Below are positions 48,178 through 50,186 of a DNA stretch of 64,000 bases, piece after piece. The DNA is taken from the NCBI GenBank assembly GCA_016206155.1, contig JACQSC010000001.1, positions 5,105-69,104 on the forward strand, in the 5' to 3' direction. Below the pieces are notes generated by a model. It searched no databases. It saw only the letters and a program-made list of their open reading frames with translations, and had not been told where the DNA came from. Both the position numbers and the translations under genes were made by a program. This DNA is from Candidatus Uhrbacteria bacterium. Its GTDB lineage: Bacteria > Patescibacteriota > Patescibacteriia > JACQRZ01. Positions within the stretch are counted from its first letter, which is position 1. Each line of letters begins with the position of its first letter.

Positions 48178-50186
48178 GCGCATTTCGCCTTCAATCCTCC
48201 TTCCCTCCTGCCGGCGATCAGCCGCAAGCCATCCAAAAACTATCGGATAGCTTTTCTCACTTTCCTCGTCAAACCCTTCTTGGTATTACCGGCAGCGGTA
48301 AAACATATACCGTTGCCAGTGTCATTGAAAACATTCAAGCGCCAACTCTCGTCCTTTCGCATAACAAAACCCTTGCCGCACAGCTGTACACAGAATTCAA
48401 GAGCTTTTTTCCGAATAACAAAGTTTGCTACTTTGTGTCATATTACGACTACTATCAGCCGGAAAGCTATCTCCCGCAAACAGACACCTATATAGAAAAA
48501 GAGACGCAGATCAATGAGAAGATTGATCAACTCCGCCTTGAAGCGATGTCTTCCCTCATGACGCGGCCCGACACGATCGTCGTGGCGTCGGTATCGTGTA
48601 TTTATGCTCTGGGAAATCCGGTTGATTTCAAGAGCGGTATGCGGACAATCAAGGCATGGGAGACAATGCGGCGCAAGGATTTTCAAGCACTGCTTATAGA
48701 ACTCCTCTATCAGCGGAATGACAGTGACCTTGCCGCAGGACGTTTTCGTGTTCGGGGTGATGTCGTTGATGTGATTCAGGGGTTTGGCGGTGATATCTAT
48801 CGTTTCACATTTTCTGGCGATGAGATAGAGTCGATCACAACGCTGGATGCTATATCGCTCTCTCCAACCCTTGTCATCCCGGCGGAGGCCGGGATCCAGT
48901 CACTAGAGAACGGTGACAGCAATCTTTCAGAATGCACGCTTTTCCCAGCCCGTCCCTTTATTACGCCGGAGGATAAACGACGGCGCGCGCTTGAGAGAAT
49001 TCGCGAAGAGCTGCGTGCGCGCCTTAAAGAATTGCCTGCGCTTGAAGCGCATCGCCTGGAACAGCGTACCAATTATGACCTTGAGATGCTTGAACAGATC
49101 GGCGTGTGCAAGGGCGTGGAAAATTACTCTCGCCATTTTGATGACCGCAAAGAGGGCGAGCCACCCTTTTGTCTCATCGATTATTTCGCCCAGAATCCTT
49201 TTTCAAAAGATTTCCTCATGGTTGTAGACGAGAGTCACGTCACGGTTCCGCAAGTGCGCGGTATGTATCATGGCGATCGGTCGCGGAAGAAAAATCTCAT
49301 AGACTTCGGTTTTCGCCTTCCAAGCGCGTATGACAACCGCCCGTTGAAATTTCATGAATTTGAGAAGTACCTCACGCATGCGATTTTTACCAGCGCGACA
49401 CCGGGCGAGTATGAATCATCCTCAAGCGGACAGATTGTCGAGCAAGTGGTGCGTCCAACCGGACTCATTGATCCGCCGATTATCGTGAAACCCATACTCG
49501 GATGCATTGAAGATGTGCAGAAGGAGATTCGCGCAACAATAGAGCAAGGGGATCGGGTGCTGGTAACAACGCTCACCAAACGATCGGCAGAAGAATTGGC
49601 GGAATACCTAACCCTTCATGACATCAAGGCGCGGTATCTCCACAGCGAAATCGATACCATTGAGCGAACAAAAATTTTAAAAGATTTGCGCATCGGCGTG
49701 TTTGATGTTCTGGTTGGCATCAATCTTTTGCGTGAGGGGTTGGATATTCCCGAAGTTGCCCTTGTCGCAATTCTTGATGCCGATAAGGAGGGGTTCTTGC
49801 GCAATGCCACCAGTCTTATTCAGACCATCGGCCGCGGCGCGCGCAATCTGCATGGCCGCGCAATTCTCTATGCCGATGTGATGACCGAGTCTATTCGGCA
49901 CGCGGTTTCTGAAACCGAACGGCGCAGGAAAATTCAAAAGGCGTATAACAAAAAGCACGGCATTACTCCACGAAGCATCGAGAAAATGGTGTCTAGTTCC
50001 TTTTTTGAAGGTATCGATGTTGATGCTATACAAAAAAGGTATCTGACACCATTGTCTATCCATGACACGATCGTTGCCCTGCAAGAAGAGATGCGCGGTG
50101 CTGTTGAACGCCTTGATTTTGAAAAAGCCATTCTCCTTCGCGACACGCTTGCCAAGCTGAAAAAGGAGAAGCGCACGCGGGATTGA
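48174..50186 (+). CDS. uvrB: excinuclease ABC subunit B
   Basis: Walker A motif GITGSGKT, helicase motifs and C-terminal UVR domain. Confidence 0.9.
   Translation: MSAFRLQSSFPPAGDQPQAIQKLSDSFSHFPRQTLLGITGSGKTYTVASVIENIQAPTLVLSHNKTLAAQLYTEFKSFFPNNKVCYFVSYYDYYQPESYLPQTDTYIEKETQINEKIDQLRLEAMSSLMTRPDTIVVASVSCIYALGNPVDFKSGMRTIKAWETMRRKDFQALLIELLYQRNDSDLAAGRFRVRGDVVDVIQGFGGDIYRFTFSGDEIESITTLDAISLSPTLVIPAEAGIQSLENGDSNLSECTLFPARPFITPEDKRRRALERIREELRARLKELPALEAHRLEQRTNYDLEMLEQIGVCKGVENYSRHFDDRKEGEPPFCLIDYFAQNPFSKDFLMVVDESHVTVPQVRGMYHGDRSRKKNLIDFGFRLPSAYDNRPLKFHEFEKYLTHAIFTSATPGEYESSSSGQIVEQVVRPTGLIDPPIIVKPILGCIEDVQKEIRATIEQGDRVLVTTLTKRSAEELAEYLTLHDIKARYLHSEIDTIERTKILKDLRIGVFDVLVGINLLREGLDIPEVALVAILDADKEGFLRNATSLIQTIGRGARNLHGRAILYADVMTESIRHAVSETERRRKIQKAYNKKHGITPRSIEKMVSSSFFEGIDVDAIQKRYLTPLSIHDTIVALQEEMRGAVERLDFEKAILLRDTLAKLKKEKRTRD
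48873..48899. repeat. family B palindromic element (GTCATCCCGGCGGAGGCCGGGATCCAG) inserted in frame in uvrB
   Basis: Encodes VIPAEAGIQS in a region about 12 aa longer than expected for UvrB. Confidence 0.7.

Follow-up and report, generated by a model that had tools for sequence, protein, structure and literature searches.

Probable CGTC-1 repetitive extragenic palindromes within and between genes of Candidatus Uhrbacteria

Repetitive extragenic palindromes (REPs) bearing a CGTC tag were defined by Di Nocera, De Gregorio and Rocco (2013, BMC Genomics 14:522; PMC3733652) and represent the closest described counterpart of a short hairpin that occurs three times, in uvrB, in dus and between genes, in a 64-kb stretch of DNA (hereafter the window) from Candidatus Uhrbacteria. 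In that work, the CGTC-1 class is characterized by a terminal unpaired CGTC, often replaced by TGTC or CCTC, an 8-bp stem that begins with a complementary A and T, a 4-nt loop (5 nt in families 2-4) and a CCA tail, and it is equated with Neisseria dRS3 and with RPE-6 of Rickettsia conorii (PMC3733652). Among CGTC REPs, 'HH' dimers with the tags outside predominate and copies are biased to the 3' ends of genes. Many intragenic REPs reside in excision-repair and RNA-modification genes, a CGTC-1 copy is present in the uvrB homologue of R. conorii, and the peptides on record for intragenic CGTC-1 copies comprise VIPAKAGI, SFPRKRES, CHSRRSGNP, DSRLRGND and WMPAFAGMT. The host phyla listed are Proteobacteria, Chlorobi, Bacteroidetes, Spirochaetes and Thermotogae; the Candidate Phyla Radiation (CPR) is absent from that list (PMC3733652).

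Several other systems offer instructive comparisons. GTAG REPs and REPINs, which are associated with RAYTs, and the terminal inverted repeats (TIRs) that flank TIRYT genes resemble the present element in consisting of short tagged hairpins, in lacking target-site duplications, in their presumed mobilization as single-stranded DNA (ssDNA) by Y1/HUH enzymes, and in forming inverted doublets in many genomes. The element differs from GTAG REPs in its CGTC/TGTC tag, in having no adjacent cognate RAYT, and in that the transposase of the window is flanked by another palindrome family (Family A) rather than by the hairpin itself (Family B). Among the Rickettsia palindromic elements (RPEs), RPE-1 is much longer, at over 100 bp, and unrelated to it in sequence. 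Nevertheless, RPE-6, RPE-4 and RPE-1 (Ogata et al. 2000) are likewise palindromes that lie in frame within conserved genes without inactivating them. Those elements are found in an obligate intracellular alphaproteobacterium, whereas the present host belongs to a free-standing lineage of the CPR.

In the dRS3/NIME elements of Neisseria, ATTCCC-N8-GGGAAT repeats bracket 50-150-bp RS units in arrays. Their architecture, GTC-ATTCCCGC-loop-GCGGGAAT-CC, is shared with the present element, whereas the stem is ATCCCGGC here and ATTCCCGC there, and the window contains neither arrays nor RS-like units; the relation to Neisseria dRS3 is at the superfamily level only. Bertels and Rainey (bioRxiv 10.1101/2021.07.10.451892) described ATTCCCGCGCAGGCGGGAATC as a Neisseria REPIN population that is tied to a Group 2 RAYT and decays where this RAYT is frameshifted. 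Unlike the case of these REPINs, a RAYT flanked by the CGTC-1 element was found neither in the window nor in 308 further loci that carry the element.

The three copies in the window match the pattern GTCATCCCGGCGRAGGCCGGGATCC without a single mismatch, at 37960-37984 (-), 48873-48897 (+) and 55556-55580 (+), all within 1 nt of the sites given in a first-pass annotation of this DNA; expressed as TTGTCATCCCGGCG(A/G)AGGCCGGGATCCA, they occupy 37956-37986 (-), 48871-48901 (+) and 55554-55581 (+). That annotation had described a 24-nt palindromic element, and although the palindromic repeat is real, its length was understated, as the stretch common to all three copies measures 28 nt (TTGTCATCCCGGCGRAGGCCGGGATCCA) and the uvrB and intergenic copies are alike over 31 nt. 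The palindromic core spans 20 nt and is made up of an 8-bp stem (ATCCCGGC/GCCGGGAT, with 8/8 positions paired) and a 4-nt loop, which reads GAAG in the dus and intergenic copies and GGAG in the uvrB copy. In every copy, TGTC directly precedes the stem and CCA directly follows it. Folding as ssDNA yields -9.5 to -10.5 kcal/mol per copy (z = -3.1 to -3.8 relative to shuffles), and the element, as read from its sequence, is free of stop codons in five of the six frames, with TGA appearing only in one reverse frame.

Since every anatomical feature tested, namely the TGTC tag, the 8-bp stem with A and T first, the 4-nt loop and the CCA tail, fits the published definition, the element is very probably a CGTC-1-class REP, that is, a non-autonomous DNA unit of ~28 nt. 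As in that family, its copies here and in other genomes have unrelated flanks, and the VIPAxAGI-, SxxRxxxS-, IPAFAGMT- and DxxLRRxD-type peptides that it can encode in frame are found there as well. The differences are that the host is Candidatus Uhrbacteria (CPR) and that two of the three copies are intragenic and all are singletons, whereas the family is mostly extragenic and dimeric. Thus, the family is one already described, with in-frame copies in repair genes catalogued in 2013, which the first-pass annotation had not recognized; what is new here is the CPR host phylum, a clean insertion in uvrB and a recurrent site in dus. Within the literature searched, no paper linking REPs with Patescibacteria was found, and searches with PAFAGMT, VIPAKAGIQ and other peptide motifs returned no match. 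A relaxed hairpin search of the window ((C/T)GTC, AT-stem, loop and CC) recovered a single additional match, the related CGTC-2-like hairpin TGTCATCCCCGACCTGATCGGAGATCCC at 58426-58451 (-), which has an 8-bp stem with one mismatch and a 5-nt loop and lies in frame in the methionyl-tRNA synthetase (MetRS) open reading frame (ORF). Three copies and one CGTC-2-like relative are therefore dispersed among unrelated flanks within 64 kb, the part of the host genome to which these copy numbers apply. Other candidate classes were considered: a CRISPR repeat was rejected because the window lacks arrays, a fragment of a tRNA or other RNA gene because the window as a whole yielded no match in Rfam, and a miniature inverted-repeat transposable element because terminal inverted repeats bounded by a target-site duplication were not seen.

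The host is a CPR/Patescibacteria bacterium, Candidatus Uhrbacteria, because the UvrB and tRNA-dihydrouridine synthase ORFs match proteins of this lineage. The uvrB ORF (48174-50186, +; 670 aa) is 100% identical to an NCBI protein annotated as Candidatus Uhrbacteria bacterium excinuclease ABC subunit UvrB, which comprises 671 residues against 670 in the query and is encoded on a 125,370-bp contig, and it also matches solved UvrB structures (E = 5e-222). The dus ORF (54978-56012, +; 344 aa from the database start, open from 54909) corresponds to a tRNA-dihydrouridine synthase (Pfam Dus, 3e-58) whose database match lies on the same contig as UvrB. The gene order is uvrB-uvrA-uvrC-dus-(unknown ORF)-cyclophilin-metG, and the G+C content of the window is ~50%. 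A CGTC-1 REP residing in a Candidatus Uhrbacteria genome, with the ssDNA-based spread proposed below, is on the whole the best explanation of these data and is considered likely.

The copy in uvrB (48871-48901, core 48873-48897, +) is read in such a way that the GTC of the element forms one codon, giving the peptide VIPAEAGIQ. Compared with solved UvrBs, the segment from 'DALTGE' to 'VAIFPASHF' is 16 residues longer in the window protein, and the alignment with the 14 nearest orthologues (67-86% identity, alignment A1) likewise places exactly 16 extra residues here, none of which occurs in any of the 14. At the DNA level, the three closest orthologues (L121-L123) show a 48-nt gap opposite this insert; the insertion region as a whole covers 48860-48917 (+), with the gap at 48860-48907 in the DNA alignment and L233-D248 in the protein alignment. 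These alignments show a clean insertion, acquired after divergence from the nearest known orthologues. The Pfam UvrB_inter match breaks off after residue 228, having reached position 73 of the 91 in the profile, so the insert interrupts the end of the UvrA-interaction domain. Residues 234-248 form a low-confidence coil between strands in a poor AlphaFold2 model built from a 15-sequence alignment (mean pLDDT 57, pTM 0.39), which is used for this remark only. Elsewhere in the same gene, a Family A palindrome doublet lies in frame at 49980-50057, where UvrB shows a 6-aa insertion relative to its orthologues.

In dus, the copy (55554-55581, core 55556-55580, +) is read in another frame, with the G of GTC at the third codon position and the peptide (L)SSRRRPGS as its product. 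It fills a variable linker that precedes the conserved PLILGNGD strand, with no net gain in length. The comparison of UvrB and Dus lengths with those of orthologues, which had been suggested beforehand, showed a longer UvrB, whereas in Dus the linker was replaced by a segment of about equal length. Orthologues of 75-80% identity are without the element, and P0122 and P0123 have GATGTTTGGAACATCAAAAAAGCGA at the linker site; the alignments indicate that the dus copy, too, was acquired after divergence from the nearest known orthologues. A second Uhrbacterium (P0129, ENA contig L124) carries an identical TGTCATCCCGGCGAAGGCCGGGATCCA at the same linker, with orientation and frame alike. Its synteny, uvrA-uvrC-dus-cyclophilin, is that of the window, and the two dus genes share only 70% DNA identity. 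In a neighbor-joining tree, the window dus groups with five REP-less orthologues and P0129 with REP-less P0127; hence both REP-bearing genes have a closer REP-less relative and the two are not sisters. The simplest readings of this recurrence would be that the site gained the element twice or that recombination transferred it. The REP-less dus genes of P0123 and P0122 (L125/L126) carry a small hairpin, GATGTT-TGG-AACATC, exactly at the REP site (homologous to 55550-55585), where it might mark a preferred target. A second part of dus, the linker from the barrel to the C-terminal domain (residues ~245-275; window 55710-55800), is highly variable in Uhrbacteria, with inserts of different lengths; it reads GLRPDSARFGQD in the window, and a REP-like peptide occurs there in some orthologues, for example HSERSKAESKNP in P0147.

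The third copy (37956-37986, core 37960-37984) is reverse-complemented and intergenic, as noted previously, and lies between the stop codon (37775) of a 3,736-aa ORF and an ORF that starts at 37993. It is preceded by a terminator-like hairpin and by a promoter-like site, and its tag end is 7 nt from the ATG of the latter ORF, which belongs to the PD-(D/E)XK family. Facing this copy, only an 8-nt TGTCATCC remnant is found. The preceding giant ORF extends over 26565-37775, and its stop is followed in order by a Family A doublet, the terminator-like hairpin and the CGTC-1 copy.

The distribution of the core in other genomes was surveyed with GTCATCCCGGC-N4-GCCGGGATCC (21 specified bases) in one genome per species, which yielded at least 142 copies in at least 120 genome stretches. 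The matches listed are mostly from alpha-, beta- and gammaproteobacteria; also among them are Microgenomates (L019), Falkowbacteria (L049), Bifidobacterium, Propionicimonas, Gemmatimonadales and a Bathyarchaeota metagenome-assembled genome (MAG). A TTGTCAT variant was present in at least 120 metagenome stretches, of which 36 of the 120 listed have less than 55% G+C, and the core was also detected in 60 viral contigs. When the three window copies were compared by BLAST with more than 300 others, similarity ended at 25-32 nt (mode 26-28 nt) and the flanks were unrelated; the element thus appears, on this comparison, to be a dispersed repeat of ~28 nt beyond which its likeness to other copies stops. 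Of the 142 copies listed, 136 have C or T immediately 5' of GTC (116 C, 20 T) and 132 have A immediately 3' of ATCC, and loops outside the window are mainly GAAG, GCAG and GAAA. In contrast to the three window copies, which do not form the doublets typical of REPINs, 44 of the 61 neighboring pairs within 150 nt of each other in the genome loci are inverted with tags outward, mostly at a spacing of 16-47 nt, in agreement with the published 'HH' preference. The classification of copies as coding or intergenic by spanning ORFs is unreliable at 60-70% G+C, so only loci below 55% G+C were used; in these, 55 of the 61 copies fall between genes or at the edges of ORFs, which agrees with the published 3'-end bias. 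A different arrangement was seen in L064, a Gammaproteobacteria MAG, where CGTC-1 units form head-to-tail tandem arrays at 2673-2733 and 3633-3729 with a 36-nt period (25-nt unit and 11-nt spacer), unlike the usual inverted pairs.

The proposed mechanism of dispersal is borrowed from the GTAG REPs/REPINs and the dRS3-type REPINs of Neisseria. Copies would spread as single-stranded hairpins, with a RAYT/TIRYT-type Y1/HUH tyrosine transposase carrying out the cleavage and rejoining in trans, and those landing in genes would persist only where the reading frame was kept and a tolerant surface loop or linker was hit. Both intragenic sites would fit this scheme, as the uvrB copy lies at the end of UvrB_inter, the dus copy lies in a linker before a barrel strand, and five of the six frames of the element lack stop codons; the in-frame copies would be survivors of selection in variable surface segments, and VIPAEAGIQ and SSRRRPGS would be passengers rather than functional modules. 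The first-pass annotation had drawn attention to the tolerance of one hairpin in two reading frames of essential genes. The two frames are indeed seen, but this tolerance is unremarkable by itself because the element has stops in only one of six frames. Both uvrB and dus are conserved housekeeping genes that are dispensable in model bacteria, and the term 'essential' was on that account overstated. The broader proposal that the element is mobile or recombination-borne, as opposed to reflecting common coding ancestry, held up well, with a 25-28-nt unit found among unrelated flanks at hundreds of loci in many phyla, a uvrB insertion absent in 14/14 orthologues, and a dus copy absent in the closest ones.

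A RAYT/TIRYT-type Y1 (HUH) transposase encoded at 16604-17290 (+) is the window's sole candidate for an enzyme acting in trans, and its link to the hairpin is inferred only. It matches Pfam Y1_Tnp (5e-17) and NCBIfam REP_Tyr_transpos (70 bits, below the 80-bit cut-off) and shares 38.6% identity over 228 residues with the P. fluorescens TIRYT 'pfs 148A'. The chemistry of the IS200/IS605 type is expected to leave no flanking duplications. The target-site duplications that the first-pass annotation had proposed looking for were absent, with no direct repeats flanking any copy and none in the comparison with empty sites. Mobilization of CGTC-1 by a RAYT-type enzyme is tentatively favored because of the REP-like anatomy, the lack of target-site duplications, the doublets elsewhere and the precedent of the Neisseria RAYT, though it falls somewhat short of an even chance. 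A number of observations weigh against it or against the explanation as a whole. The RAYT/TIRYT gene of the window is flanked on both sides by inverted repeats of Family A (GGTGTCAGG type), not by CGTC-1; 14 diverse RAYT/TIRYT queries, which were able to detect the window gene, revealed no homologue in the 308 CGTC-1-bearing loci; and CGTC REPs have been reported as being without a dedicated transposase (PMC3733652). Moreover, all three window copies are singletons instead of inverted doublets, the copies of the host are known from 64 kb of its genome only, and the dus copy is exchanged for a linker of about equal length instead of being added to it. Finally, the REP accounts for 28-31 nt of the 48-nt uvrB insertion, so that one unit leaves the remaining 17-20 nt to be accounted for; a search for a longer mobile unit found no match for these 17-20 nt in the 308 loci or the window.

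The main rival is spread by recombination, with copies homogenized by conversion. Gene conversion over short patches could be involved, as could exchange with incoming DNA, whether homologous or illegitimate, and template switching at hairpins while DNA is replicated or repaired. This rival gains its standing from the dus recurrence and the non-unit insertion lengths: an identical TGTCATCCCGGCGAAGGCCGGGATCCA occupies the same dus linker in a non-sister Uhrbacterium (L124/P0129) whose dus is 70% identical, and neither gene displays a clean one-unit insertion (+48 nt in uvrB, ~0 net in dus). The GATGTT-TGG-AACATC hairpin at the dus site of REP-less P0122 and P0123, the failure to find a dedicated transposase beside CGTC-1 copies, and the viral contigs carrying the core, as possible vectors, are also in its favor. 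However, the flanks of more than 300 copies share nothing past ~28 nt and would leave homologous recombination without a substrate for placing copies at new sites. The strictness with which tag, stem and tail are kept, like the dimers with outward tags in different phyla, suggests that a protein recognizes the element, and the dus coincidence could equally reflect target preference combined with selection for tolerated loops. Recombination is accordingly regarded as the less probable account, at about one chance in four. Still less probable is the placement of CGTC-1 by an unidentified, widely conserved trans-acting activity that has a target preference and crosses phyla, a notion prompted by the identity of stem and tail in CPR and Proteobacteria, the use of the same dus linker twice, and the lack of a RAYT beside ~300 sampled copies.

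It is also conceivable, but unlikely, that the hairpin is kept for a cellular function, as an RNA element (terminator, mRNA stabilizer or regulator in a 5' untranslated region (UTR)) or as a protein-binding DNA site of the kind proposed for E. coli REPs, in which case cross-phylum sequence identity would reflect functional constraint. The intergenic copy would lie in a 5' UTR, given its position between the promoter-like site and the start codon 7 nt away, and both the location of 55/61 low-G+C copies between genes or at ORF edges and the identical stem sequence in very distant taxa would suit such a role. In contrast, a regulatory role common to the uvrB and dus copies is improbable because these two of the three window copies lie inside ORFs, in different frames, at places where the nearest orthologues have no hairpin; no Rfam match was obtained in the window, and function leaves the arrival at new sites unexplained and is an addition to mobility instead of an alternative to it. 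Chance, convergence of coding sequences, or an artefact of assembly or contamination in which proteobacterial reads were chimerized into a CPR bin can be considered already refuted for practical purposes. One of these might be suspected since the identical core is, among the matches listed, commonest in high-G+C Proteobacteria while the window has ~50% G+C, and since the window holds three copies only. Yet the ORFs in which the copies are embedded run on without a break, and their flanks can be aligned codon by codon to Uhrbacteria orthologues. The dus copy recurs in another Uhrbacterium, from an independent ENA assembly, and the Microgenomates (L019) and Falkowbacteria (L049) records add further CPR occurrences. 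Chance similarity, raised as the refuting possibility at the outset, is contradicted by the absence of any match to GTCATCCCGGCGRAGGCCGGGATCC in 100 dinucleotide-preserving shuffles of the window, and convergence at the protein level is excluded because the peptides differ, as the frames do.

With a REP of probable CGTC-1 class spread in this manner, the known range of the family would be extended to the CPR, a result of modest scientific value that supplies a clean, dated insertion in uvrB together with a recurrent site in dus. The window also shows that several repeat families can be tolerated within the housekeeping genes of such a streamlined genome. For annotation, the occurrence of VIPAxAGIQ, SSRRRPGS, CHPGxGRDP, WIPAFAGMT or LDPGLRRDD in predicted proteins flags REP-derived segments or spurious ORFs, and length differences among UvrB, Dus or MetRS proteins of CPR genomes can stem from such inserts. 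Small CPR genomes might also render the question of the CGTC REP mobilizer tractable; if a trans-acting activity does operate across phyla, phylogenetic profiling of the very small gene sets of element-bearing CPR genomes could reveal it.

Family A palindromes make up the other conspicuous repeat of the window and are arranged as inverted doublets at 20720-20773, 37803-37849, 49980-50057, 58365-58420 and 60026-60074. They possess a conserved G(G/T)GTCAGG motif, which is near the published GGGGWSAS TIR motif, together with variable stems; copies are found in frame in metG (EKMVSGSISEKMEPDTIFS) and inside a TatD-like ORF, and one follows just after the giant ORF. The CGTC-2-like hairpin at 58426-58451 directly adjoins one such doublet, in the part of MetRS that separates its catalytic domain from its anticodon-binding domain, and reads QGISDQVGDDS. 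Another Uhrbacteria UvrB (P0015) has this hairpin type, read as VIPDLIGDP, in its N-terminal extension.

The 229-aa transposase contains the HUH motif 'SNHVHIL' and the segment 'NPVRAGIV...YPWSSY' and is accompanied at 16552-16573 and 17281-17302 by a perfect pair of 22-nt inverted repeats (AAACCGGTGTCAGGTCTGGTTT and its complement); the segment 16552-17302 constitutes a 'TIRtron'-like unit in a CPR genome. Direct repeats at 15924-16111 and 17373-17552 (~120 nt and 51 nt, 73% identity) bracket this transposase cassette and a reverse-strand ORF (16002-16631). Both of them end in a terminator-like hairpin, CCCGGC...GCCGGG, and the arrangement suggests a duplicated target or a composite insertion.

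Tandem heptamers (TAACCCC, TAAACCC, AAACCCC, GTAACTC) are located near or at gene ends at 3488-3532, 23968-24012, 38747-38779, 42880-42924 and 58809-58840, and heptamers of the complementary type (GGGTTCA) lie on the other strand at 23920-23956, 42178-42214 and 60205-60241; one set encodes the C-terminus (VTRNS) of the ORF at 37993-38766. In addition, a repeat of 50 nt (84% identity), of which a 24-nt core (CTTGGGGCTCCCTTCGTCAAATCG) is exact, is present at 54001-54050 in uvrC and at 54897-54946 at the uvrC/dus junction, and may represent a third repeat family. The junction copy is contained within a perfect 24-nt inverted repeat at 54892-54961.

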